In this document: positions 7,388-32,269 of the stretch, piece after piece | Layout of the letters: every line of letters begins with the position of its first letter | Position numbering within the stretch: the stretch's first letter is position 1 | Assembly (NCBI GenBank): GCA_002256025.1 | Contig: NKIB01014752.1 | Span: forward strand, 1 to 40,825 | Direction: 5' to 3' | DNA: 40,825 bases | From: Asterionella formosa | Lineage: Eukaryota | The notes under the pieces: model-generated | Told to the model about the DNA's origin: nothing | Seen by the model: the letters and a program-made list of their open reading frames with translations, nothing else | Databases searched by the model: none | Translations under genes and position numbers: made by a program

Positions 7388-7705
7388 CAAATGAAAGCAA
7401 TCGTTTTCGATTGACCCCTCATTTCCTTTTTTTTGATTGCAGCGACGAAACGAATTTAATTTAGCTTTCAACAATGCGAAGAAGTTAAAATTCTTTTTAC
7501 CCCTAGAATTAATTGCCCTTTTCCACTAAGATTAATTGCCCTTTTAATCGCATGTAGTTTGACGCACAACATGTTGCAATGTGTCATGATGAAAACAAAA
7601 CATAAACTGCTGCCGACAACGTCGTCGTCCTGATGATCGACAAGCGATGCTTCAACCGCTACGAATGTTGTTAATGTTGTTGTTGCTGCTGCTGTGACTA
7701 CAAGA

Positions 7706-10700
7706 ATGTCCTCTTGTTCTTATACTTGGTTTCTTCAGCCTCACCGCCGTGCTCCCGAGATTTGTCATATCAGTAATGTGACGGGTATTCCACTCATGGA
7801 AGGCATTCCTATTGGACGTCACGAATTACTTACTAGTCACTGGAAAGCATGCGGATGCAAACGAAACAGTTGCAGTATTTGTCAAACGATTAAGAAGGAA
7901 TTCAAGCTCATTTCGAGGACATTAATGATCCTGAAACAAACGAATCGATTGGTGGTCCTTGCTCGTGCTCCTACTGCTGATACCCCTGCTGCTACAAACA
8001 CGAATAAAATCGTATTTTGTGATTTTAAACTGGTGGAACCTTCGGGGGTTGAGCTACAAGAGGGGATGAGTATCTTGCTGAGACGAATCCATTCAGATGG
8101 GTCGGAAGCAATCCTTGACTTTGTTGTTCATCGTTGCAATAATGACGACGAACAGGAGTCCACCATGCGGCTCTTGACACAACGAGACGACTACGACATG
8201 GTTCCTCCTATGAGTCATGACGTTTCAGAACTGACGGATACAGGCATTCACCAAAATATATCAAGTTTGAGAAAAAAAGCCAAATCATCATTCGATTTTC
8301 CTAGGCAGATCTGCGTCGAAACGCAAGTAGAGCTCTCGGAACTGTCGGATCATGCAAAGCTATTACCAGCAACTTGTGGAAATGAGGAAAGCGACCCACC
8401 AGTATTAGGCTTGGAAAAACAACAGCTGGTACTCGAAGGACCATCAAGAATTCGAAAACAACAGCCGCCAGATACACTCGACGATTCACACGAACTCAGA
8501 CTGTTCACTCAGCAAAAGGCTCACAATGGAGCTAGTAATGATGACAAATGTACGTCGTCACTTGGCCGAAATTTAGGTAACGCGACTCTGTCACAACCTA
8601 GTCCAGACCAAAGCAAAGAACGTTTAACTAATTACACAAGTCTGCTACTTTGTAATGGCGAGAAAAACATTTCTGAACAAACATGTGTCGTCCCTCCTAC
8701 ATCAAGTGATGCAGAAAAGCGTGGCAAAAACTGCACTCAACACGATACCAGAAATTGGTGCGAAAGCCAATGTGACGATTCTATAACGCTTTTTTCTAAA
8801 CAGCACTTGAGTTTTCCTAACTGCCCGGATTCCGCCCCGTCAACACCAGCTCGTGTGAACTCATCATCTATAAAGAACACACCAGAATTCTTTCAGAGGA
8901 TGGAAGCTAAGTTGGATAAACTTGAAAGTAATGATGATGCATCGAAAGGGGAATCGTCAACTTGTCATGATTGGTTATCGCCGTGCTCGAAAGCTCAGGT
9001 AGATTGCAAAATGGAACATGTGCCAGTGCAAATTAATAGCAAAGCGGAGAAGGTCCAGGCCTTGGAACATCAGCATATCACAAACTCTGATACAAACACT
9101 GTTTTACTGTTTGACAACCCATCATTAATGCCTCTTCTTGATATTGCAGAGCACAGTCCTTGTGAATTAAGTAGCCAATCTGTCATTTTAGAGAAAGTAT
9201 CACCAGATCGACAATGCCTTGAATTGAGAAACGAATCGACGACTGTGGATAATCCAAAGGTGGTACTCCTTTTTCTTCAACTTGGCAGAAACATGATAGC
9301 TGAGCGAATCCGAATTTTGTCTCGCGTCGCTCGCGAAAAAGGCGCCGAGATAGTGGACGACTTTAGGGGGATACCAAAACCGACTCACCTGGTGATTGAC
9401 GCAAATGTCAAATCTACGAGTGTTGCAGAACTATTGGGCGTTCGTAATCCCGCACTTTTGGCGAAGGAATTGGAAGAACGGGGCATTGAGACCGTCAAAC
9501 CAGAATGGATAGGCCGACCCGGGAGCACGTGGAGCAACCCGACAATATTACAGCTCTGGAATGGATTGGTGAACTTTCAAGTCAAGTCACTAAAAGCTTC
9601 ACCCCTGGTTGATCGGAAACGACCGAGATCGCTTATTTCTGCTGGCATTGATTTTTCTCCAAATTCTGGATTTGATACGACTCCTAACAACCCGTGCTGT
9701 CCACGAAATCAAGCTCTTTCTGGAATCTTTCTTAATCTTTCTAGGGCGACAAAGAATTGTCCCCTTGATCCACTTGACGAAATGAAGTCAATGATGTTCA
9801 ACATGGTGGCGGGGAGACTGATGGAACTTGATTTCGAGGTTTTGGACCGTCCTGATTCCCTTGCGAGACTCAAAGCTATCAAGGGCCTTGGACCGACGTC
9901 ATTCAATATCGCAGTAGAATTTCTTCGGGAAGGCAGATGCCGTCGTCTTGAGTCATATGCTACTGATCCCTCTAAAGTCTCGATGACTACATTTATGGGA
10001 ATTTGGGGCGTTGGTAGAGCCATGGCCATGAATCTGCGAAACAATGGGTATGAGACACTAGATGATATTCGAGCTGCTGTTCAGGAGGGAAAATTGACTC
10101 TTGACCCCAGAGCTCGAATTGGGCTGGACTGTTATGATGACTTCAATGAAAAGATGACTCGGGAGGAAGTGGAAATGATTGGCGATATAGTTACGAAAGC
10201 CATTCGAGAAACACTACCCAATGCTGAAATTAGCATAATGGGCTCATACCGTCGAGGAAAGACAGGACTTGGTGACATCGATATACTCATAGTGGACTCA
10301 GAGTGGGTCAAAGATACCCCATGCGAATGGCTTGGTGCCCTAGTAACGAAACTTCACCTCTTGGGCCATATGGTTTACCATTTGACAAATATTGCTGGCA
10401 TTAGCTACGATAGTGCAAACAGCCAAACATCGTTGGAGTACCGACCGTCAAAGAAGAAAGGACATAAATCAAGAAAAACATCAACAAGTCAAAGCTATAT
10501 GGGAGTGTTTAATTCTCCAACAAACCCTGGTCGAAGGCGTCGTATTGACATAAAGTTTTATCCTTATCGGGAGAAAGCCTTCGCCCAACTATATTTCACT
10601 GGCAGTGGTTTCTTCAATCGCTCGATGCGTCTTTGGGCTCATCGATGCAAGGGAATGGTTCTCAATGACCATGGCCTCTTTCGCCCATTAGACAAAACTT

Positions 10701-10912
10701 TCAAGAGTTTGGAAAACGATCGACTTCCGATTGAATGCGCTACCGAACAAGAAGTTTTTGACGTGCTTGGGTTGGTGTACAAGGAGCCCCAGGAAAGAAT
10801 ATTCTATGATGCGGTGCTACCAAAAACCCAAGTTCAGCATGTCAATGTGGAGATAGACATAAAAGAAGAGGCAAATTACGAGCTTGGCCAGGGCTACGCG
10901 TGGATTGATTAA
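7706..10912 (+). CDS. Family X DNA polymerase (Pol lambda-like) with BRCT domain and long N-terminal extension
   Basis: Single ORF of ~1068 aa from the first ATG at 7706. BRCT-like 'LSRVAREKGAEIV...PTHLVID...VKPEWI'; HhH motifs 'IKGLGPT' and 'IWGVGRAMA'; nucleotidyltransferase 'MGSYRRGK..GDIDILI'; third Asp in 'RRIDIKFY'; 'LYFTGSGFFNRSMR'; 'LNDHGL'; 'TEQEVFDVLGLVYKEPQER'. Confidence 0.92.
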   Translation: MSSCSYTWFLQPHRRAPEICHISNVTGIPLMEGIPIGRHELLTSHWKACGCKRNSCSICQTIKKEFKLISRTLMILKQTNRLVVLARAPTADTPAATNTNKIVFCDFKLVEPSGVELQEGMSILLRRIHSDGSEAILDFVVHRCNNDDEQESTMRLLTQRDDYDMVPPMSHDVSELTDTGIHQNISSLRKKAKSSFDFPRQICVETQVELSELSDHAKLLPATCGNEESDPPVLGLEKQQLVLEGPSRIRKQQPPDTLDDSHELRLFTQQKAHNGASNDDKCTSSLGRNLGNATLSQPSPDQSKERLTNYTSLLLCNGEKNISEQTCVVPPTSSDAEKRGKNCTQHDTRNWCESQCDDSITLFSKQHLSFPNCPDSAPSTPARVNSSSIKNTPEFFQRMEAKLDKLESNDDASKGESSTCHDWLSPCSKAQVDCKMEHVPVQINSKAEKVQALEHQHITNSDTNTVLLFDNPSLMPLLDIAEHSPCELSSQSVILEKVSPDRQCLELRNESTTVDNPKVVLLFLQLGRNMIAERIRILSRVAREKGAEIVDDFRGIPKPTHLVIDANVKSTSVAELLGVRNPALLAKELEERGIETVKPEWIGRPGSTWSNPTILQLWNGLVNFQVKSLKASPLVDRKRPRSLISAGIDFSPNSGFDTTPNNPCCPRNQALSGIFLNLSRATKNCPLDPLDEMKSMMFNMVAGRLMELDFEVLDRPDSLARLKAIKGLGPTSFNIAVEFLREGRCRRLESYATDPSKVSMTTFMGIWGVGRAMAMNLRNNGYETLDDIRAAVQEGKLTLDPRARIGLDCYDDFNEKMTREEVEMIGDIVTKAIRETLPNAEISIMGSYRRGKTGLGDIDILIVDSEWVKDTPCEWLGALVTKLHLLGHMVYHLTNIAGISYDSANSQTSLEYRPSKKKGHKSRKTSTSQSYMGVFNSPTNPGRRRRIDIKFYPYREKAFAQLYFTGSGFFNRSMRLWAHRCKGMVLNDHGLFRPLDKTFKSLENDRLPIECATEQEVFDVLGLVYKEPQERIFYDAVLPKTQVQHVNVEIDIKEEANYELGQGYAWID

Positions 10913-11001
10913 GAGAATTGCACCGGAAAAGAATATTCATGTTCTAGCTTCTTATCGTAAAATTGGACCGATTCTCGGAAGGGTCTAACAGCGTAAAAGA
11001 A

Positions 11002-13350
11002 CTATATGAAGAGTGATATGAGCATATCGGCCATGGAAAATACAATGAAGAAGGCTAGCACAGGAATGAACAGCACCATCATGATGAATACATTTTGGCT
11101 TAGCCACCATTTGCTGATCTTGTGCGGAATATCGATCCAAGTCGATATGCCTTCGGCTGTGTATGTTTCGCCAATTAATGCAGGGAATAGCCGAGTCAAT
11201 ATTCGGTGAGGCGATTGGGATGCATGTGCAAGCCATTGGAATGTGAATGGAGTCTTCCAGTTCCCTAAAACGAGTCGATGTGAATCTTGAAAGGCAATAT
11301 AGTTTGAGGCCATGACGTCACTCACGACAATTGTCCCGGAGAAGGTGAAAGGTGCATATACTCCGTTACGAGTGACTGTGTTGATGTGTGTTACAGTGAC
11401 AAGGTCGCCTGTACCTAGCTGAAGCCGGTCTCCGACTTTAATCGATGATGCTGGAACACTGTATCCACCTTCAACCACGACCATGTGGTCATTGGTGATC
11501 TCAAGTCCTGATGGAAGAAGCTGAAGAAACTTAGTGGTGATAGATGTGTGACGATGCCCAAAGCTATAGACTTTGTCGTAAGTGTTTTTTGCAACCAAGA
11601 TCTCATCGCCAATCTTGAGGTCTTGCATCAGGATGGTACCATTATCTTTGATTTGAATCTTATTCTGTCCAGAAAAGCAAGATTGATCGACACCAGGGGC
11701 TTGAGAGATTACTGGAAGGTTAGTACCTACGCAGTTTCTTGATTGGCCGGAGCTGGAATCATAGATACTAATATCCATCTTGTCGACAAGGCCAGAGACG
11801 TATTGTCTACACACCTCGACAACATATGTCTTGCCGCCGATCGTATGGGTGAACTTTGAGTTGGACGAATCAAGTTCTGCTTGGAGGTAGGTGCCGGCAG
11901 CATGTTTCAGGACAATAACAAGCTTGTTAGAACCTGTTTCGGTACCAACGTTAAACGATATGGCTTTGTTGTACTGCATGTAGAGATTGTGCAACTTGAC
12001 TATAGCATACCCACCCCCTGTTTCAGCGAATGAAGAAACGGTGCCTTCCCAAGCGCCTGTGGACGAGGGGTTTATGTCGATTCTCCTGTTCATATACCAC
12101 CCAAGGGTCCAATCTGGTGACATGTAGATCTAGTTAGTCAACAAGGACTTGGATAAACGGTAGAGTGTCACGGCAATTCACACCCAATACTTACGATTCT
12201 CGGCATTGAAGCATTTCGCTGGGAAACGTTGTTTGAACGTTCCAACGCCCATGTATCCTGAATTATCTCCGTCTGAACGAGTCAGCGTGCGTACCAAGGA
12301 CGAATATGATGAGTCCCATGCATCCAACATGTTCTAAGGATTTGCAGCACATTCCTTCGAAAAACTTACATTCATCATCATATGTACTGCTATGAAGGAG
12401 TCCGAAGTTATGACCCAGTTCGTGAACAGCCAATGATACTCTCTCACAAATCTGGTCTGAATACCAAGAGATAGCACCGCCGACGTAAGCGGCACTGACA
12501 AAACCGGTAATGGTTAGCTTAGGAAAGCAGATCATAAGGTGGTCAATGTCCCCTGCATTTCCTGTTCCAAAGCTACCATATAAGGCTTTGAATTGAAAGG
12601 GTTGGTTGGAATTTTGGAAATCAAATTTTTCGTCTTTCATGTTACATGTGAACAACAGTTCTTACCTTCTGCCTTGGTAACGATCTTGTCTAAGAATGCA
12701 TCACGAGAGTATGCATTGAGATCGAAAGCAACAGTCATCCTGGCAACTCCTCCAACTACTCCTTGTGCAGTGGCTGGCAAAATAGCCTTTACTCCCTTTG
12801 AGCAATCGCGAAAAACAGTAGCGACGGTCGGAGATTCAGTCCCAAAAATGTAGTTTGACACGTCCGAAGGAGTGGACGACTGAGGGTTGCTAGGAGAGTC
12901 AATGAGCAACACCAAGACTGTTGAGGCTCCAGTGGTCTTGAGTGCCATACGGCGACGACGGTGAAAGTCAGAGGATTCGACAATTGAGAGCGTAGCACCT
13001 TGAGGGATCACAATTTGATTTCCCATGTATTCGTCCTCAATAGTTGTGGCTCCAGGAATATGTATGCACGTTTGGCCTTGAACAAGGTGGACCTTGTTGT
13101 CGGTTAAAAAGTCAGCAGGTAACTCGATTTTGTACATGTTTCCAGTAACACCACTTGGGTCACTGGTTGGATCGGTTTCGCATGATATGGTTCGCTTACC
13201 GCGAAGGGCACCTGTCGTCGCATTTTGATAAATACTCTCAGCAACTCGGAGACAACAGGAAATGCCATCAACGCTCTCCAATCCTCGAAGCCCGCCTGCA
13301 GATACTGCTGCCAATAGGCACAGTGAGGTAGCAATACTTAATTGAAGCAT
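11002..13350 (-). CDS. Secreted M11 (gametolysin-like) metzincin fused to a Hedgehog-type Hint domain and C-terminal hydrophobic/TM segment; exons 13350-12666, 12585-12370, 12272-12195, 12113-11002 (~696 aa)
   Basis: Three GTAAG...AG phase-1 introns give one continuous frame: signal peptide + 'GLRG', 'HRRRR' propeptide end, zinc motif 'HELGHNFGLLHS', Met-turn region 'EYGDNSGYMG', 'CFNAENHWTLGW', then 'QS|CFSG...MQDLKIGDEILV...ITNDH...GVYAPFTFSGTIVVSDVMASNY' and a hydrophobic tail. Confidence 0.88.
11299..11679 (-). other. Hint (Hedgehog/intein) autoprocessing domain within the 11002-13350 gene
   Basis: N-terminal nucleophile Cys ('CFSG', codon 11679-11677), block-B 'TNDH', 'PASSIKVGD', and Hog-type C-terminal strands 'GVYAPFTFSGTIVVSDVMAS'. 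Confidence 0.88.
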
Positions 13351-14604
13351 ACTTAAGATTTCAATTACCTTTCGATTGTCTCTTTTGATTCGAATAATCG
13401 TTTTTGTGAGATGATCCGTAAAGGTATGTGCTGCAAAAGATTTGATGAGGTAATATTGCCGCGAATGTGCAGCAGTGTGACATGATATACCGGTCTGCTC
13501 GAGTTACATACCGTTATCCTCTCTGTATAGTTTTGGATATATCGTAATGAGACTCCATGTATTTTTGTCAACTCCCACTAATGTCACCCTAAATATTTTT
13601 ATCGACTCCTATTTTATTTAAATGTAATTAGTTGACCATGACCGCATTGGTGTTTACCGGTATGCACTGCATATTTGTATACATAGTAATATCATGTATA
13701 TACACAATTCTGAATTAATCAAGGTAGATGAGCCATAGAAGGGTACCTGGTACCAGGTACCATGTACCACACCGTGGTATCTTTTCTATCGACATGGTTG
13801 TTCTACCTGGTACCTTGTACCTCAAATATTCTAATCATATCGGGTTGGCATTTGTTCTCGTCCCGCGTATTTATGAAGATTTTACCGTTGTAGGTTTACA
13901 CATTTGTTGATAACATACAAATACGCTTATATGCATTTGTCTATGTATCTCAATCATGCAAGCGTACCGGTACTTGCTGGATGCGACAAGGGCGGCAAGC
14001 GACATAATTTCTTCATATTACGTAGAATCATTCTTGACTAGATACCAATCGACTCCGAAAATATTCGTTCAAGATATCATCCTTTGTTGTATTTATGTCT
14101 CTATGTAAAACAGACCGAAACCATCACTTCTTACATTCAAATCCGATCATCCAGTCCATGATCCCGCTCCTCCAAATGAAAGGACGAAGTGAATCGGAGT
14201 TGGCTTTTTCAGCACAAGCCCCCTCGTTGGACGATGCATGTGTGTTTGTGTCACGTGATGATAGCATTATATTGTTTCCTTTCATTAAGAAGTTAGGCAT
14301 CCAGGATTGTGCTAGTACCAGGTACCCAAATTAGGACGAGCCCTCACGTTGTGATAGCGCCTTGCTTTGTACTCGAGCTGTCGAATCACCCGCAGAAGAA
14401 AACTATTATATTGATGCTTTATTACTCTTGTCTTCGTGAATTAGAAAATCTGGTATCCGCGGAAACGTTTCATGGGAGAGTTAGTAAACGATTGCACGCA
14501 CAATAAAGAGACTACTGATATAGCAAGGAAATCGACGAGTGGGTTACTTCTCGTTAATACTAATATTAACTAGAAGAGACATAGAAAGACTGGAGGCGAG
14601 TAGG

Positions 14605-16683
14605 CTACTTGAGATCATGTTTTCCTCGGTGGTCACGTCTAAATCTCCCAATCATTAGCCTACACAAATGGCCACAATGGTCATGGTGAGTGGCGAAGAA
14701 CATTGCACAACCTTTTCTACCTCGATCAGTCCTACCGTGAACGAATCGCCTGTCCTCGCGACGATGATTGTAATAGTGAATTACGGGATCAGAGAATTTC
14801 AAAATGTTCTCTTTCTCGTCAAATATTCCCTGCAAGTCGCATACGAGGCGCTTCCTTCCTGTTACAAAATAGGTGAAGTGCGAGAAAGCCTGTGCAACTT
14901 CTGATGGCGTGAAAACAATCGGATGTTCGACATTTCTTTCGTCATCTTCTTCGTCCTCATCCTCGCTTCCTTCTTCAATGTCATTGAGGTCTGACGAATT
15001 GAGATTGGCCATGGCATCGCGCATCGCCTCGTTGGAAAACGTTGGCGAGGCCTTCATTCCCTCAACATACCCATTGTTCATGTTCCACTTGTGCCATTTG
15101 TGATAGTCTAGACGTTCCTCAACTAGAACACTCAAAATCCCCAAATTATTATCGTTGAGTTGATAAACAGAGCAATCAAGAAAAGTCACTTGCGGTGTCG
15201 CTCTGTCGATACGGCGCCTTGTTGACATCTTCTTATTGAATTTAGCTGCAAGGCTGCGTGCGATTTGCTGTGCCTCGCAAAATTGCATCGAGAACTTTTT
15301 TCTTGAATTTTCACCCATGCCCTCCTCGAGGATGAGCCTACTCTCTTTTGCCACCAACGGGGCTCCGACAATTGTTCGACCATCCCTTGCAAGCTCGAAA
15401 AATCGATAGGCGAACCGTTCCGCTCCTTCACCAAAAGCTTCTTTGTGCATCGCAACAAATTTCGCGCCGCAATGCTGAAGGCTTGCTGCCACAAGTGCCT
15501 TGTTGCGTCTACCATCGTGAAACGACTCTTCGTAAACAAATCGCCTCACATTATCCAATTTATAAATCCAGAACTGGTCAGAACAAACAAAGCTAATTTC
15601 TTCGCTTGCTTTTTTTCGTGACTCCCTCAACACATTCCTTACACATTGCTGCTGGAGGGTAGCAACATCCGTCATTTCCGATTTCGTCGTAGTAACAGAC
15701 GTTGCCACTGAGGAGAAGGCGTCGCCTATTGATGAACATGTCAAGGAAGGTAATCGAAAGATTCCCACTGCACCGAAATCGGATGCAATATCTACCATTG
15801 CTCGTAATGTGTCAAAGTCATGAGAGTTCCCAATACCAATCGTGGCAAACGTGAGTCGCCGACCAAACTTCTTTGCCAAGTCCCCCACAACTTCAGTAAT
15901 TCTCGCATTCATTTCTTCTCTCGAGAAAGCCTTTGTCCCCATTAAGTCAGATGGTCTACCATCCGACAGAAAGCAAATAGCTAATGCACACTTGGTGTTT
16001 GAATTCCGAGTCAGTAGGTCTTCTGCCACTAGCAAGCTTGGAATATATGGTCCATGACCTCGAGCAGGAAAGCTTTTCTCCTTGTATATGTGAAGGATAC
16101 GATTGTAGAGTATCCAAGAAGCAGGTTGCTCATGGATTAGAACTTCAACATGGTCCGAAAACGACACCACGGAAATAACGTCTTGCGAGCATAGTTCTCC
16201 AGTTTCAAGTCGATGGGCAAGGAAATCCAAAGCAACGGCAACCCAAACGGCATCTAGCCGCGATCGTGTTCCCCATACATCGCCACACCTCATGCTTCCA
16301 CTCCTATCAACAACCAGGACAGTGTTGGACAGCCACGAGTTCATATCCGACCTGATCGTTCTGAGGGCTTGGTCATGCTCTCGTTGTAACGCGTCGTTGA
16401 TCGGTACGTACTCAAGTTCCAATGGAACAGAGTAGGATGTGACCTCCTCGCCAGTGATATCGTTGGTGATGTATACAATATCCTTGTAGGTGTAAATGGA
16501 TGTTGGATCTCCATTCGGTCTTGGGTGAGTTGACCTCGTTGAACCATACTTTTTTGCTGCTTGAAGATCTTTCTTGTCGATCCCCCTTTGTTGTCGTCTC
16601 AATCTTCCGTGTTCTGTTTCCACAAAGCTTATTGCAGAGGTCGGGACTTGATCTAGATTCCTCCTCATCCTTGTTGCCTCCAT
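14605..16683 (-). CDS. Alpha-kinase (eEF2K/MHCK family) with vWA domain and N-terminal DUF4258-like module
   Basis: 692-aa intronless ORF. vWA MIDAS 'VVDRSGSM' and 'FLSDGRP'. Alpha-kinase motifs 'FGEGAERFAY', 'VAKES', 'VEERL', 'KWNMNNGYV', 'AQAFSHFTY', 'VCDLQG', 'SDPVIH', 'GRTDRGRKG', Zn ligands 'HHDHCGHLC'. N-terminal 'TEHGRLRRQQRGIDKKDLQAAKKYG'. Confidence 0.9.
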   Translation of the reverse strand: MEATRMRRNLDQVPTSAISFVETEHGRLRRQQRGIDKKDLQAAKKYGSTRSTHPRPNGDPTSIYTYKDIVYITNDITGEEVTSYSVPLELEYVPINDALQREHDQALRTIRSDMNSWLSNTVLVVDRSGSMRCGDVWGTRSRLDAVWVAVALDFLAHRLETGELCSQDVISVVSFSDHVEVLIHEQPASWILYNRILHIYKEKSFPARGHGPYIPSLLVAEDLLTRNSNTKCALAICFLSDGRPSDLMGTKAFSREEMNARITEVVGDLAKKFGRRLTFATIGIGNSHDFDTLRAMVDIASDFGAVGIFRLPSLTCSSIGDAFSSVATSVTTTKSEMTDVATLQQQCVRNVLRESRKKASEEISFVCSDQFWIYKLDNVRRFVYEESFHDGRRNKALVAASLQHCGAKFVAMHKEAFGEGAERFAYRFFELARDGRTIVGAPLVAKESRLILEEGMGENSRKKFSMQFCEAQQIARSLAAKFNKKMSTRRRIDRATPQVTFLDCSVYQLNDNNLGILSVLVEERLDYHKWHKWNMNNGYVEGMKASPTFSNEAMRDAMANLNSSDLNDIEEGSEDEDEEDDERNVEHPIVFTPSEVAQAFSHFTYFVTGRKRLVCDLQGIFDEKENILKFSDPVIHYYNHRREDRRFVHGRTDRGRKGCAMFFATHHDHCGHLCRLMIGRFRRDHRGKHDLK

Positions 16684-16927
16684 ATGATTTTGTTGTTTTG
16701 TTTGGTTGCTGATGCTTGGCTCAGTGTGATGGATGAATGAATGAAAAATTAAGGCCTTCTAGTATATACTATTACCGGTAAATAGACCACTGGGATTACT
16801 TTCAGTGTGGTTGACAATTTTGTAATGTAGTAAGAAGATTTTCTGACTTGTGAGAAAAGCAAGAACTCTCATCACCACATCAGCCTCACAATGACGATGT
16901 ACGCTTTGATTAAAAAATGAGATATAG

Positions 16928-26027: not shown

Positions 26028-29000
26028 TCACTTCGCTCCATAACCACCGCCTCCTGGTGTTTCAATGAGCATACTCTCTCCAACATCGATTTCGGTACTA
26101 CACCTGCCTCCCATATTCACTATGCGGCCTCCTTTCTTAACAAGCAAGTTGAGACCACATGCCCCGTCCCCACCCCCGTTCATACCATAAGGGTGCAAGG
26201 TACGACGCTCGCTCAAAATGGACATGGTTAGTGGACGAAGGGGCTCAATCTCACGAATGACCCCTTCACCACCTGGATGTGCTCCTATGCCACCAGAGCC
26301 CTTGCGCAATCCAAACTGCCGAAGAATAACAGGATAACGACGTTCAAGGATCTCGGGATCGGTAATTCGAGTGTTGGTACAATGAGTGTGCACTCCATTG
26401 CATCCATCCCAAGTTGGACCAGCACCAGCTCCTCCAGCGATAGTTTCGTAGTATCCAAACTTATCATCACCAAATGTCAAGTTGTTCATACATCCTTGAC
26501 TCGCAGCGCAGGCCTTGAAAGCTTTGAGGACAACATCAACGACACGTTGAGACGTCAACACATTGCCTCCAACAACACCAGCATCCGAAGATGGGTTCAA
26601 TAGAGTGTACTCTGGAATGATGAATTCAATAGGAGCCAAACAGCCTTGGTTGAGAGGAATATCGTCAGCCACAAGCGATCGAAGTGAATAAATGACAGCT
26701 GAATATGTTACAGCGGGAGGAGCATTATGGTTCCCAAGAACCTGCGGTCCAGTGCCGGTGAAATCAAACACAGCGTCACCAGTTGCCTCATCGATCTTTA
26801 TATTTAGCTCAATAGGAGTGCCGTCGTCCATGAAATCAATGGCATGAGCTGTGTTTCCATTTTTGGCAGCAAAGTCTTGAAGCATTTTACGAACAGAAAT
26901 TTCAGCATTTTTCTGAATGAAGCGCATATAGGCATCAACAGTATTGAGACCATACTCTCCGACAAGTTCTTGTAGTAAACGAATTCCAGAATTGTTGGCA
27001 GCGACCTGAGCACGCAAATCGCTGAGGTTGTCCCGGAGGTTACGGGTACCAGAGTTACCCTTGAGCTTCCCAGGTGCCATCAGAATTTCGGTGATACCCT
27101 CCTCTTGGAACTTGCTGTCCTTGACGAGCTTGAAGGCTACAATCATGGCTCCTTCATCTTCCAATCGCTGCGAATGAGGTGGCATGGACCCAGGTGCGAT
27201 TCCTCCAATATCAGCATGATGTCCACGGCTGGCGACAAAGAAAATGATTTCTCCCTTGTGAAAGACAGGAGTGATGACAGTAATGTCAGGAAGATGGGAA
27301 CCACCAGCCAGCTGAGGATGATTGGATACCAAGACGTCTCCATCTTTGATGCCCTCGCGGCCTTCAGAATTCCAGTACTTGACTTGAAAGGTAACAGCAG
27401 CCTGCATGGCACCCAGGTGAACTGGAATGTGAGGAGCATTGGCCACCAAACCACCGTCAGCAGTAAATAGCGCACATGAAAAGTCCAAACGTTCCTTCAT
27501 ATTGACGGAAATGGCAGTCCGCTGCAATGTTCGTCCCATCTGTTCCGCAATGCCCATGAAGCGATGCGAAAAGATGGAGAGCTGAACGGGATCTTCCTTT
27601 ACTTCTTCTTCATTGTCAGGGTCCTTGTCGTGTGTGGATTCAAGTGAAATATCCAAATCACCATGGGCAGTGACAATAGCCTTGCAACCAATCTCCAAAA
27701 TAATTGTACTAATTGCCTGCACAATGATACAAGGTCCTTCCACCTGGTGCCCAGGACTCAAATCCTCCATTTTGTAGACATTAACATCTTCCCATCCATG
27801 TTCGAAAAACGCACGAGTCTGATATCTCGGTTCGGGAGCTCCCAGCAATGGAACTTCCGGTTGTGGGGGTGGCGTTGGACCAGGAACCACCGCTCTAACA
27901 CGATAGTCATCAATTAGCATACCGCGTCCTTGTAAATTAAAACCAAATTCTCTCATGTACTGCGCGCGAAAGGTTTCACCGTATCCTTGGTGGCTCATTT
28001 CTGGGATCATAATTGCGTTGTCTGTACCTTCATAGCGAATATTAAGAAATTTCTCAATGAGAATATCATCTGCATCATACCCTTGATCCACTAGTGCTTG
28101 TTTGGCCTTATTAGCCAATTCCTGAATACGTGCATCTCTCATGGTCGTATCGGTATTGATCTCACCATTGGCTGTCTCGTACACTTCCGCTGCTGGTTCT
28201 TGTTGCTCTTGGACCGCATCCGCCATACTCAATCCATAGGCACTCAATACTCCACCATACCTATGCACAAAGACTCGTGACATGCCCAAGGCCTTGGCCA
28301 TAGCACACGCATGTTGAGGTCCAGCTCCACCAAAACATGCCAAGGTATGCGTAGTCAAATCAAAGCCTCTCATTTGAGTTAAATTTCGAATGGGACGACA
28401 CATGGCTTCATTGGCCACTTGCAAAAATCCAAATGCCAATTGTTCCACCGTCTTGCCTGCTGCTTCCGGACGCGAGGCCAATTCTTCAAATGCATGAACC
28501 GCCCCATCAACATCGAGGGGTTCATCTTCTCCTGGTCCGAAAATAAATGGAAATTCTTGAGGTAGAATTCGACCCAAAACCAAATTAGCATCCGTGACAG
28601 CAAGGTATCCATTCTTACGATAACAGACAGGCCCAGGATGAGCTCTCGACGACTCGGGACCTACAATAAACATGCCTCGTTTTAAAAACAACCGCGAGCC
28701 ACCCCCTGCCGCAACAGTATGGATGTCAAGTTGTGGTGCTTGGATGGCCACTCCACTAATGGTGGTTTCCAATACATGATCATAGGTTCCATCATATCTG
28801 GATACATCCGTGGACGTGCCCCCCATATCAAATCCAATGACTGGTAGAGTTGGTGTGGTCTTGGCGTATCCCACGACCCCACCTGCAGGTCCTGATAGAA
28901 TGGCTTGATGTCCACCAAATGCATTGTAGGGTGCCAAGCCCCCATCTGATTTAATAAACGTGACAGGTACATTTGTCGTCAAGTCCTTGTCAAAGCCTCT

Positions 29001-30104
29001 GATAAATCCATCAAGGTACGCCGTGATTTTGGGTGTCAAATAGGCAGCAGCGCAAGCTGTGTGGGCACTAATGTTTATTGTGAGTGAAAGAAAGAAAGAA
29101 AGAGTGAGAGTGAGCAAAGTGAGTCATCAAAAACATTAGAGTATAAATACCGGTAAAAGTGACTTTTCAACATACCGACTGACAATTTTGACCATGGGCA
29201 TGACTTGACTACTCAAAGAAATCTGTTCAAATCCCACTTCCTTGGCCACTTGTCCTACCAATAGTTCATGATCATTGTACACGTATGAATGCATAAAACA
29301 AATGGCCAAAGCAGTAATTCCACTTTCCTTCAAAGCCATGAGTTGTTCTTTCACTTCAGTTACATTTGGTACTTGTACCACGCGCACTTTTTCTCCAGTA
29401 ATGCCCACCTTGATTGTGGTAGCATCATTATCATTCTCATTGTCAGTTCCATCAGGTGAAGTTTTATGTGTCCAAAATTCGTCCAAAATCAAGCGTTCCT
29501 TCACTTCCACCACTTGCTCATACAAGACAGATGGCTTTTTGCAAGAAAGGTCAAAGATATCAGGTCTTGCTTGATTCCCAATTTCCAACAGGTCCTTGAA
29601 TCCTTTCGTAATGACAAGTGCCATACGTGATCCATCCCGTTCTAGCAATGCATTGGTGGCTACTGTCGTTCCCATTCGAATGGATCCGATTTCATGGGTT
29701 GGGACTGGAGTTCCATTGCGAGCATACTTGTGGGAAGTAGCAGTAGCAGTAGCAGTTGTAGTAGCTGTTGTTTCAGTATCCGAAGTATCTGACGTGGATG
29801 TATCAAACTCGGCCAGGATCCGACGAATTCCTTCCGTGGGAGCATCTGGATAATGCATTGGATCTTCTGACAATAACTTTCGTACAATAGAGGTGACTCC
29901 ATCGGGTAAGATACAATGGACATCCGTAAAGGTCCCACCCCGATCGATGCAAAAGTGGAACTTTCCAGTCGTTGCCATTTTGCTTCTGGTAGTAGTTGAA
30001 GTATTGATTGTGAGTGCGGTAGCAATGGTGGTGGAGGTGGTGATGGTGATTGACAATGGAGGAGAAGCAAAAGCGACAAGATGCACCAAAGAAGAATAGC
30101 GCAT
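26028..30104 (-). CDS. OXP1: 5-oxoprolinase (ATP-hydrolysing; hydantoinase A+B fusion); exons 30104 (or 29978)-29176 and 29067-26028
   Basis: 'IDRGGTFTD', 'KLLSEDP', 'IRMGTTVATNALLER', 'LSGPAGG', 'FDMGGTSTDVSRY', 'VAAGGGS', 'FGGAGPQHAC', 'ERLDFSCALF', 'NAPHIPVHLG', 'GGSHLPDIT', 'YYETIAGG', 'ETPGGGGYG'. Phase-2 intron 29175-29068 (GTATG...TAG) gives 'VSRAHTAC'. Confidence 0.96.
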
Positions 30105-32269
30105 ACACGAAAGCAGAAGCGGAAAGCGGAAAGCGGAAAGCGGAAAATCAGACACTGGTTGTGGCTGCTTCAATTCAATTCAATTCAATTGCTAGCTTGC
30201 TTTTATTGAAGTGATTGGTGTGAGGAGCCGAACAAATCAATCGACCGATCAATGGGATTTATGTTAGTTACACTTTGCAGCGGAACAAAAGCAAAAGCAA
30301 CCGAGTTCGATCTTTGGGACCTCTTTGTTCCTCTCTTTGCTTTCCTTTTATATTTTTATACCGGTATCATGTGAGCATCATCTCACCATATCATTGCGTA
30401 CAGAACCTGTCTATACCAGGTACCGGTACGTGGTACCAGTACCAGCATCTAATGGTGCTTCCTTGCCTCACCCCCCCCTGGTACCAGGGTACTGGAACCA
30501 GGGACGTGGTATATACCTGGTACCAGGTACAGGTTGAGAGGTCGAATTTATCGCTAAATTATTCTACCAACGACAATAACGGTAGATTACGTACAAAACA
30601 TACATGTATTATCGGTATGTAACTTCAAATTGGAACGCGCGCAAGCCACAGGATAATCCATCATCCTGTTCATGCCTGGTTTACCAGGATATACCAGGTG
30701 AACTCACCTGGTACCTGGTACCAGAAACTGCCTTTACATATGCATGAAATAAGCAAGTGGCTGTGATGACCACGCGATGCGCTCGAGCGTTTCCATACGT
30801 CCGGGTTATACCAGTAGTATGGATGATCATGAAGCAGATAAACGTGAAATAAACGTCAAATTTACCGTCAACGTAAAGATTATTATGTGTACCGGTACTA
30901 CCGTAGAGTGAATGAATTATAATTATGTATGAAAGTAATGTTTTGTGATGATATCCATCATGCTAGGCTCTAATTTCTTCCTTTGTTGCATCAACTGCAA
31001 GCACTGTATCCTACCAGGCTGGCATGCATTGATATCCATACAATAGAATTGACAAAGTCTCTCATCCTTGACAAATACACATCATTGTGCTGCAAGTAGG
31101 GGACATTCTTGGGTTTTTTCTGGAGACGAGTAAGCATTTCCCACTGCATTCGTACATTTCATTTGCATGGCCACAAGTCAGCTGCTGCCAACAATAACTA
31201 GAACAAACTGAGGTTGATTCCCTGTTCCACTAGAATGAGTTGTCAGGGGTCCTTGATTTGATCATGTTCTCTCCTCCCAGCAGAAGATGAAAGGCCAATG
31301 ACTTGATTTGGCATAGTAGTAGTTTGACTAGCAGATTTCAGAAAGGAAGAGTTGTCTCATCAGATAGTATTGACTGGAAATCGAACCCATGATATGTCGC
31401 TGCCACTTTGTGAGGACTTCTAGGAGCTCTGAAATAACAATAAATGCAGAATGAATCAAATCCTTTTGCTATTATCCATTCACGGCCGCTGATAAAGGTG
31501 TCTTATTTTTGTCACGGATTGATTCATTGTGCTTTCTTCTCCGATTTAGGTAGATAGGCAGCCAGGGGCAACGATGAACTTCATTGATCATGATTTATAT
31601 TATATATTCTTGTCATCTCGTTAACACAACTGACCTTCCATGCTGTTTGACACACCTACACGCAGATTGTATCTAATGACGAACGCTTCCAATGCAATGC
31701 TGCTCATTTATTTATTGAGATTTTGTGATGCTATCATCAATACAACATCACTTCGTGGTAATATGCGTTGTGATATCATGCGTCTCCCACATGATGAGTT
31801 GGTTTCTGGAAAGGAAGCAATCCAATGAAAATGTCGATGGGCTTGTTGTAGCTAGATGATGAAAAGCTACCATTCTGATCCTAGTATGTCGTCAACTGGT
31901 TCTTTAGTTTTGAACTCGATACATTCAACTAGGTCGTCCATGTTCCACTATGGTAGAATCGTCTCTACATCCTCACGAGATTTGTTAGCTATGAACTTTG
32001 ATTCCACTTACTCATCTCCCAAGTACCATGATCCTGCTCATGCTCTGGAACCTGGAGGATCCTCCAAGAATGGTTCAGCTATGATGAATTCTAGTGGTAC
32101 TGGAATTGGATATTCTACCATGCATGGCAAGGGAATCGGTTCCCATTAGCGGGAAATGAAATCCGAGCGTTTCGATTAGTAATAATTCTCGCCAAGCAAG
32201 GGTTGAATTGATGGAAATACAATGCTCCCAAACAAATCTTCTATGCAATATCAAGTTGTTTATCATTTC

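Follow-up and report, generated by a model that had tools for sequence, protein, structure and literature searches.

A spliced gene of Asterionella formosa joins an M11-type metalloprotease to a Hedgehog-type Hog domain and a C-terminal membrane helix: a candidate self-releasing enzyme from a large Hog-helix family

Contig NKIB01014752.1 of the Asterionella formosa assembly GCA_002256025.1 was analysed over its full length of 40,825 nucleotides (nt; the window hereafter), and we describe here a gene on its minus strand that appears to encode a secreted zinc metalloprotease of the M11 type followed by a Hog domain, of the kind found in Hedgehog proteins, and by a hydrophobic C-terminal helix (Table 1). 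In lists of open reading frames (ORFs) the locus is broken into pieces, each of which ends at a GTAAG donor with an AG acceptor after it, and all three introns read CT..AC on the plus strand, that is, GT..AG for a gene on the minus strand. When the four exons are joined by their coordinates, the resulting 2091 nt translate into a protein of 696 residues with no internal stop.

The splice joints are documented by contigs of four RNA-type runs (X1 to X4) from three studies, labelled as algae or lake-water samples and mapped to positions 10950-13420 of the window. In X4, a contig of 1039 nt (record 23) begins in the Hint part at 11210, crosses exon 3, and ends in exon 2, the zinc-site exon, at 12425, and in X1 a contig of 917 nt (record 3) joins exons 3, 2, and 1 (up to 13288). 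For intron 2, the contigs of run X2 have loose ends at both borders, and the end at 12272 apparently repeats the start of exon 2. Among the listed contigs none covers the gene from end to end; overlapping contigs together connect all four exons, from which we infer one transcript for the whole gene. The spliced protein is also colinear with a natural homologue of 711 residues, P0003, over residues 49-691 (38% identity, E=2e-141), and this alignment is free of gaps at all three exon junctions. Hence, since RNA contigs link the exons, the frame is open, and the P0003 alignment is colinear, the protease and Hint parts are confirmed to belong to one spliced gene and not to two.

The alternative, that a protease gene and a neighbouring Hint gene have been misread as one, could draw on the splitting of the locus in the ORF lists and on the existence of some unspliced contigs. 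However, RNA contigs cross all three junctions and connect the Hint exon to the zinc-site exon in an open frame, and three natural proteins (P0003, colinear in alignment, together with P0080 and P0196) carry both domains in one chain, so that we regard an artefact of this kind as refuted and give it almost no weight. The initial annotation of this stretch had joined the ORF pieces through three introns into a 696-residue protein, which the joints, the open frame, and the P0003 alignment bear out, and it had named separate transcripts for the protease and Hint parts as the finding that would speak against it, a situation contradicted by the exon-linking contigs.

Two further observations concern the RNA contigs themselves. 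Short contigs from the RNA libraries run unspliced over the introns at 12084-12224, 12248-12399, and 12521-12672 (X1 record 2; X3 records 17 and 19), and these may reflect retained introns, pre-mRNA, or carried-over DNA; if intron 3 were retained, the frame would end just past the catalytic domain. In addition, one X3 contig (depth 5, side 28) omits 77 nt within exon 4, at 11716-11794, with GT..AG borders on the plus strand, antisense to the gene; its source may be an antisense transcript or a different organism.

Table 1. Parts of the protease-Hog gene and their positions in the window. P0001 is the exon-4 protein, modelled with AlphaFold2 (AF2); pLDDT, predicted local distance difference test; SRR/ARR, sterol-recognition region/adduct recognition region.
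Feature	Positions	Strand	Basis or remark
Whole coding region, four exons, 696 residues plus stop	11002..13350	-	stop codon 11002-11004
Exon 1: residues 1-228 and base 1 of codon 229; signal peptide, prodomain, first half of protease domain	12666..13350	-	
Intron 1, 80 nt, GT..AG	12586..12665	-	joint 12585>12666 in 4 of 4 RNA runs
Exon 2, zinc-binding motif	12370..12585	-	
Intron 2, 97 nt, GT..AG	12273..12369	-	joint 12272>12370 in 3 of 4 RNA runs
Exon 3, Met-turn	12195..12272	-	
Intron 3, 81 nt, GT..AG	12114..12194	-	joint 12113>12195 in 4 of 4 RNA runs
Exon 4: end of catalytic domain, beta-sandwich domain, linker, Hog domain, transmembrane helix, stop	11002..12113	-	
Predicted signal peptide, about residues 1-19	13294..13350	-	19-residue hydropathy window at residue 1 >1.6
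Putative prodomain, about residues 20-134 (about 115 residues), ending in HRRRR (12949-12963)	12949..13293	-	placed by position
M11-type metzincin region, about residues 135-466: catalytic domain and C-terminal beta-sandwich	11695..12948, introns included	-	
Zinc site HELGHNFGLLH (H283, E284, H287, H293)	12392..12424	-	
Met-turn stretch GDNSGYMG, M308 at 12250-12252	12247..12270	-	
Disordered linker, residues 457-468 (12 residues)	11689..11724	-	pLDDT <50, residues 136-147 of P0001
Predicted scissile bond between Ser471 and Cys472, Cys codon 11677-11679	11677..11682	-	S-CFS motif
Hint fold, residues 472-617	11242..11679	-	
His513 (Hedgehog Asp46 position)	11554-11556	-	
TNDH, residues 533-536 (TxxH)	11485-11496	-	
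SRR/ARR-like region, residues 618-667, three predicted helices	11092..11241	-	
C-terminal transmembrane helix and very short tail, residues 668-696	11005..11091	-	hydropathy; model

The N-terminal two thirds of the protein have the makings of a secreted metzincin. The hydrophobic start is probably a signal peptide, and the putative prodomain closes with the basic stretch HRRRR at residues 130-134; the equivalent region in the AF2 model of P0003 is predicted with moderate confidence. The zinc-binding motif HEXXHXXGXXH is present as HELGHNFGLLHS (residues 283-294), and YGDNSGYMG (residues 301-309) spans the junction of exons 2 and 3. Across an alignment of 22 M11-type relatives, the zinc-site columns and the Tyr, Asp, Met, and Gly columns of the Met-turn are invariant in all 22. 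A comparison of residues 1-470 with M11-type proteins gave a match in 20 of 20 cases (E from 1e-56 to 1e-12), and eight of nine relatives that were rescanned pass the Pfam M11 cut-off (P0003, P0014, P0015, P0018, P0024, P0027, P0080, and P0196), seven of them being among the 20 matched by residues 1-470; their profile scores include 48.9 bits for P0003, 70.3 for P0015, 43.6 for P0024, and 42.3 for P0080. Indirect but strong evidence therefore points to an M11-type metzincin, as the initial annotation had proposed from the zinc site and the Met-turn.

The region between the catalytic domain and the Hog domain is one place where the initial annotation needs to be amended, since the supposed beta-rich linker is in fact a beta-sandwich domain that is conserved and belongs to the protease, and the true linker comprises only about 12 disordered residues. 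The beta-sandwich lies at residues 16-124 of the P0001 model (block pLDDT 62-92), and the same region aligns with M11-type proteases that lack a Hint domain (for example over residues 57-444, 132-466, and 70-466); because it is common to such Hint-less proteases, we assign it to the protease. In the AF2 model of P0003, the protease (about residues 150-465) is predicted confidently, with pLDDT roughly 80-95, and the Hog part poorly, as the alignment there is shallow; no conclusion is based on that part. The best solved match to the P0003 protease model is the zymogen of InhA2 (M6; E=1.2e-4, with poor superposition), and catalytic domains of the adamalysin/ADAMTS type also match (E from 3e-4 to 5e-3); no solved M11 structure is among the fold matches of this model.

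The C-terminal part of the protein reaches 81 bits with the Pfam Hint profile PF01079, where the cut-off is 29.7 (E=1.2e-22), and covers positions 10-210 of the 213 in that profile. The nucleophile and the TxxH motif are in place as well, so the Hint assignment of the initial annotation holds. That annotation had also described a segment of about 50 residues after the Hint fold; such a segment is present, and since the profile match runs to position 210, it is the counterpart of the sterol-recognition region of Hedgehog. Its three helices lie at residues 297-304, 306-314, and 330-343 of the P0001 model, and it is conserved as strongly as the Hint core, with the motifs W, H, P-H-R, E-x-Y, and G-x-S-x-W. 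The P0001 model as a whole (pLDDT 85) finds Hedgehog autoprocessing structures as its best solved matches, 6tyy (E=3.2e-10, TM 0.78) and then 1at0 (TM 0.78-0.79 and 29-31% identity for the two), followed by inteins and bacterial intein-like (BIL) domains, including ciliate BIL2 (PDB 6y75/6tmm). The motifs that had been named for the gene (HRRRR, HELGHNFGLLHS, YGDNSGYMG, S471-C472-F-S, TNDH, and the hydrophobic tail) are all present.

Two other identities for this part of the protein were considered. An intein was rejected, as the Hint fold ends in ...A-S-N-Y without the His-Asn and the +1 Cys/Ser/Thr, and the SRR-like region and the helix come next; in the fold search of P0001, moreover, the Hedgehog structures outmatch inteins. 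The Hedge signalling domain finds no match in the protein of this gene, the N-terminal part of which is the metzincin.

The active site of Hedgehog consists of Cys1, Asp46, Thr69, His72, and Cys143, according to passages of PMC12054796 and PMC9163320. Alignment of the sequence to Drosophila Hedgehog-C (6tyy, 1at0) positions Cys1, the TxxH motif, a His at the place of Asp46, and an Asn at the place of Cys143, and we followed these positions through an alignment of 159 cassettes, the query and 158 relatives. Cys1 (Cys472 here) is Cys in 156 of the 159, the other three having gaps, and His72 (His536) is His in every one. Thr69 (Thr533) is Ser in 129, Thr in 29, and Lys in one. The general-base residue of Hedgehog, Asp46, is replaced by His513, and this position is His in all 159. 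The position of Cys143 (Asn597) varies, with Ser in 62, Asn in 58, Thr in 32, Cys in four, and Ala in three. A general base is required for the sterol step of Hedgehog, and an engineered Drosophila Hedgehog with the same exchange, D46H (D303H), keeps its structure and its activity and tolerates a wider range of sterols (passages of PMC9163320); the crystal structure of this variant is the top match of the P0001 model. As the Asp-to-His form of Hedgehog stays active, the general-base function may be kept with His513.

The C-terminal membrane anchor that had been predicted for the protein is supported by hydropathy (about residues 668-695) and by the P0001 model, in which residues 347-374 form a long terminal helix. 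A hydrophobic stretch lies within the last 60 residues of 156 of the 158 relatives. The helix carries a conserved Pro (128 of 159 cassettes; residue 677) and a conserved Glu or Asp (128 of 159; residue 689). A Pro in the middle of the helix and an acidic residue just after it hint at a role beyond anchoring. A glycosylphosphatidylinositol (GPI) signal was rejected as an interpretation of the tail, as 6-41 residues (median 29) follow the best hydrophobic window in the relatives, in addition to the conserved Pro and acidic residue.

What extends beyond the initial annotation is that this fusion belongs to a very large family, whose members have the Hog domain and its anchor attached to many unrelated secreted domains. 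A search with the Hog-helix part (236 residues) against 1.84 billion representatives returned 4782 proteins with E<=1e-3, 2339 with E<=1e-10, and 506 with E<=1e-30. The cassette occupies the C-terminal part of the protein in all of the 150 best matches, and a Pfam scan of these 150 found Hint in every one and a further domain in 42. Trypsin is the most frequent of the further domains (nine cases), followed by leucine-rich repeats (LRR, seven), M43 (three), and subtilase, Kazal, and copper monooxygenase (two each). Single cases among the same 150 are M11 (P0080), multicopper oxidase, AA12-like, sulfatase, fasciclin, plastocyanin-like, DUF305, beta-lactamase-type, GH19 chitinase, pectate-lyase-like beta-helix, rhodanese, PBP-like, glucose/sorbosone dehydrogenase, VWA, spherulin-4, DUF7467, and cytochrome b5, and an additional word search brought M14, VIT/VWA, and more sulfatase and oxidase cargo. 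The few relatives with a database record are mostly from Haptophyta, with Rotifera for two rows.

Within this family the combination with M11 is rare: among 19 matches to P0003 both domains occur only in P0003 itself, and P0080 and P0196, each with the two domains in one protein, make up a second case. The window gene has close relatives among exon-type ORFs (P0031, 79% identity; P0219, 73%; P0220, 63%), together with the exon-1-type ORF P0221 (97% identity over half); a search of the protein collection found no spliced fragment of the window gene, just the exon-1-type ORFs P0219, P0220, and P0221 of its relatives. The window cassette is 50-56% identical to cassettes with trypsin, copper oxidase, AA12, M43, and subtilase cargo, 52% identical to that of P0003, and 44% identical to that of P0080. 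In a FastTree phylogeny of the 159 cassettes, which was rooted at the midpoint and from which no order of events is drawn, the window cassette is sister to P0031 (support 1.0), and the smallest clade to which both it and P0003 belong (support 0.67) comprises 19 leaves, among which the cargo is trypsin, M43, copper-oxidase, and AA12; the cassettes with M11 cargo are not grouped together as one clade. Because the cargo varies across similar cassettes and the M11 cassettes form no clade, the Hog-helix cassette behaves as a module, and since the same cassette is attached to many other secreted proteins, we take it for a module of general use in deployment that is not specific to this protease. It should be noted that one relative, P0058 (798 residues), has two Hint stretches (178.8 bits in total), a tandem Hog arrangement, and that by tblastn the window contains no further Hint gene.

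The surroundings of the gene contain several other coding regions. A long ORF on the plus strand (7637-10912) with the palm, thumb, and fingers domains of DNA polymerase beta/lambda (a family X polymerase) is convergent with the gene and ends 89 nt from the protease-Hog stop codon (10912-11002); a contig of 2387 nt (X1 record 1) spans the 3' ends of both. About 400 nt upstream of the start codon lies a cluster of GGTACC / GTACC repeats (13740-13825; ggtacctggtaccaggtacc ... ctacctggtaccttgtacc). Further along, the minus strand carries an ORF (14605-16758) that combines an alpha-kinase domain (E=8.7e-31) with a VWA domain, and two adjacent ORFs (26028-30179) over which the N, A, A_C, and B domains of hydantoinase/oxoprolinase are distributed and which are probably one 5-oxoprolinase gene split by an intron.

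Based on these data, we put forward a mechanism in which the protein is made as a type I membrane precursor and its self-cutting Hog domain frees the protease from an anchored stub, possibly onto a sterol-like lipid; with the evidence drawn from sequence, predicted structure, and conservation, we consider it moderately probable as a whole. The signal peptide would direct the precursor into the endoplasmic reticulum (ER), and from the topology that this implies the M11-type protease, with its prodomain and beta-sandwich, would come to lie on the luminal or outer side, joined by the short flexible linker to a Hog domain that the single C-terminal helix holds at the membrane. Cys472 would then attack the carbonyl of Ser471 in an N-to-S acyl shift aided by Thr533 and His536, and the resulting thioester would be resolved by a hydroxyl nucleophile activated by His513, detaching the protease from the membrane-bound Hog stub. 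We think a membrane sterol-like lipid a likelier acceptor than water, in which case the protease would end up lipid-anchored at the cell surface, as is the case with Hedgehog. Self-cleavage between Ser471 and Cys472 is the part of the proposal that we hold to be reasonably probable, whereas the lipid adduct on the released protease is its weakest step and is offered tentatively. As to the substrates, the M11 family leads us to guess at extracellular or cell-wall proteins.

Any such mechanism has to contend with several observations that weigh against it. On the protease side, the basic site at the end of the prodomain is not conserved in P0003, and a Pfam scan of single exons with the M11 profile (PF05548) gave 12.3 bits for exon 2 (E=0.085; cut-off 21) and no match for exon 1; with exon 2 alone, the M10, reprolysin, and astacin profiles score about as well as M11. 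On the Hog side, the Cys143 of the SCYA motif is replaced by Asn597, and sonic hedgehog no longer processes itself in cells once this Cys is exchanged for Ala or Asp (C143A, C143D; PMC12054796, in part). The residue before the cut is Ser here and mostly Phe, Ile, or Leu in the family, as opposed to Gly in Hedgehog. Lastly, in the literature searched we came upon no bench experiment on a Hog domain from outside the animals.

The missing Cys143, needed by sonic hedgehog according to that part of PMC12054796, and the Ser in place of Gly before the cut are also what would be expected if the Hog domain were dead and served only as a stalk, leaving a permanently membrane-anchored ectoprotease like the membrane-type matrix metalloproteinases (MT-MMPs) or ADAMs. 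We consider this improbable, as Cys1, His46, Ser/Thr69, and His72 are kept in 156-159 of the 159 cassettes, and the replacement of the Cys143-equivalent cysteine (motif J) was already noted as the rule in protist Hogs in a passage of PMC2362128. Moreover, among variants counted in environmental RNA contigs with at least 90% likeness, the ratio of synonymous to non-synonymous changes is 22:11 over the whole coding sequence and 8:1 over the Hog-helix part. The latter fits purifying selection on the cassette and, taken together with the conservation of the residues, would argue for selection on catalysis beyond that on the fold. Hence, self-cleavage by an active Hog domain, as proposed above, remains our preferred interpretation.

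If the domain does cleave, the next question is what resolves the thioester. In a hydrolysis-only Hog, water would do so and the protease would be soluble, the SRR-like region and the helix merely holding the precursor at the ER or Golgi until it is processed, as a matter of timing or quality control. The active-site residues expected in that case are identical to those of the mechanism proposed here, the loss of Cys143 could mean a simplified reaction, and the first SRR helix of sonic hedgehog doubles as a Golgi localisation signal (a passage of PMC9163320). However, a His in 159 of 159 cassettes at the general-base position and an SRR-like region conserved as strongly as the core are hard to explain without an acceptor, and we regard hydrolysis alone as unlikely. 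Hall et al. reportedly found in 1997 that the Hint part of Hedgehog by itself suffices for thioester formation and thiol-induced cleavage, which we also count against it. Taken together, the general-base His that never varies, the conservation of the SRR-like region, and the membrane-holding helix suggest a specific acceptor over plain hydrolysis.

Such an acceptor need not be a lipid. A hydroxyl or amine of a wall or matrix polymer, or of another protein, could serve instead, and the cassette would then be a device for the covalent attachment of extracellular enzymes. The cargo, mostly extracellular enzymes and binding domains, would suit this idea, as would the presence among the fold matches of the ciliate Hint-type domain BIL2, members of which presumably ligate their cargo to proteins. 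What speaks against it is that the SRR-like region corresponds to the part of the Hedgehog profile for sterol recognition and that the helix confines the domain to the membrane, where a lipid acceptor is the more fitting; we judge a non-lipid acceptor very improbable. The sterol-like lipid is thus the acceptor that we retain in the proposed mechanism. In its most far-reaching form, which we put forward as doubtful, the cassette would serve algae and other protists as a general system of lipidation in the style of Hedgehog. Dozens to hundreds of secreted enzymes per genome, such as proteases, sulfatases, oxidases, glycosidases, and adhesion domains, would then start as membrane precursors and be moved by their own tail to a membrane sterol, with the invariant His tolerating varied sterols and animal Hedgehog being a late specialisation.

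The interest of these findings lies, in our judgement, more in the Hog-helix family than in the window gene alone. They bear on the question of what Hog domains did before animals used one for Hedgehog, for which Burglin (2008) suggested as ancestor a secreted protein able to attach a sterol or similar group to itself (PMC2362128, in part). The gene and its family make this question testable, since the cargo is easily assayed, the place of the cut is clear, nature has put a His at the general-base position, and Cys143, recently called indispensable in sonic hedgehog (a statement in PMC12054796), is naturally absent. If the cassette lipidates or releases its cargo, this would explain the deployment of many algal surface enzymes and would offer protein engineers natural self-cleaving, possibly sterol-ligating tags with a broad tolerance for cargo, and if it does not cleave, the result would be informative on which residues of Hedgehog are essential. 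Were the general lipidation system real, sterol anchoring of secreted proteins would be an old and widespread route by which cell surfaces are built.

In the published record, protist Hogs with secreted N-termini are already known, and it is the M11 cargo, the helix, and the invariant His that appear to be new. A literature search that covered few subscription journals and no supplements found no description of an M11-Hog fusion, in agreement with what the initial annotation had supposed for the M11-Hint architecture, nor of enzyme cargo, the membrane helix, or the invariant His, and a term search of the text of PMC2362128 gave no occurrence of Thalassiosira, stramenopile, heterokont, protease, peptidase, or diatom. 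More than 290 Hint-domain genes are reported for the pennate diatom Pleurosigma pacificum and 112 for Seminavis robusta, also pennate, in a passage of a genome paper of 2025 (PMC12803021) that does not describe their architectures, and a survey of 2018 states that most Hint-containing proteins are of unknown function (PMC5784728, in part). The part in sexual reproduction or EPS remodelling that the initial annotation had considered possible finds no support in the present data. Two reports on sexual stages are leads only, with no tie to this gene: an "autolysin" that is up early in Pseudo-nitzschia sex (a passage of PMC8769554) and Hint-domain transcripts in sexual stages of Seminavis (cited in a passage of PMC3879662).

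Compared with known systems, the cassette is closest to the Hog domain of Hedgehog (PF01079, 1at0, 6tyy), with which it shares the Hint fold, the Cys1 right after the cargo, the TxxH motif, a sterol-recognition-type region, and a secreted N-terminal cargo. It differs in that the cargo is an enzyme in place of the Hedge signalling domain, that His stands for Asp46 as a natural counterpart of the engineered D46H/D303H, that Asn stands for Cys143 and Ser for the Gly before the cut, and that the C-terminal transmembrane helix is absent from Hedgehog. The Hogs of protists and nematodes (warthog, groundhog, Hoglet, GmGIN1; passages of PMC2362128) likewise combine a secreted, varied N-terminus with a Hog domain, and those of protists have the motif J cysteine replaced. 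In that part of Burglin (2008), recognisable other N-terminal domains are given only for GmGIN1 and Hoglet (PMC2362128), whereas the cargo of the family described here includes proteases, a sulfatase, oxidases, a chitinase, and LRR domains among others, and a membrane helix ends the cassette. With gametolysin (M11, PF05548) the protein shares the HEXXHXXGXXH motif, the Met-turn, and homology to proteins above the Pfam M11 cut-off, but it has in addition the fused Hog domain and helix that most of its M11 relatives lack. Gametolysin is the G-lysin of Chlamydomonas, peptidase M11. The membrane-anchored metzincins, MT-MMPs and ADAMs, resemble the present protein in being zinc metzincins with a C-terminal helix at the cell surface and in the adamalysin/ADAMTS-like catalytic fold. 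They are held at the surface by that helix and are either shed by other proteases or stay anchored, whereas here a putative self-cutting domain lies between the enzyme and its anchor.

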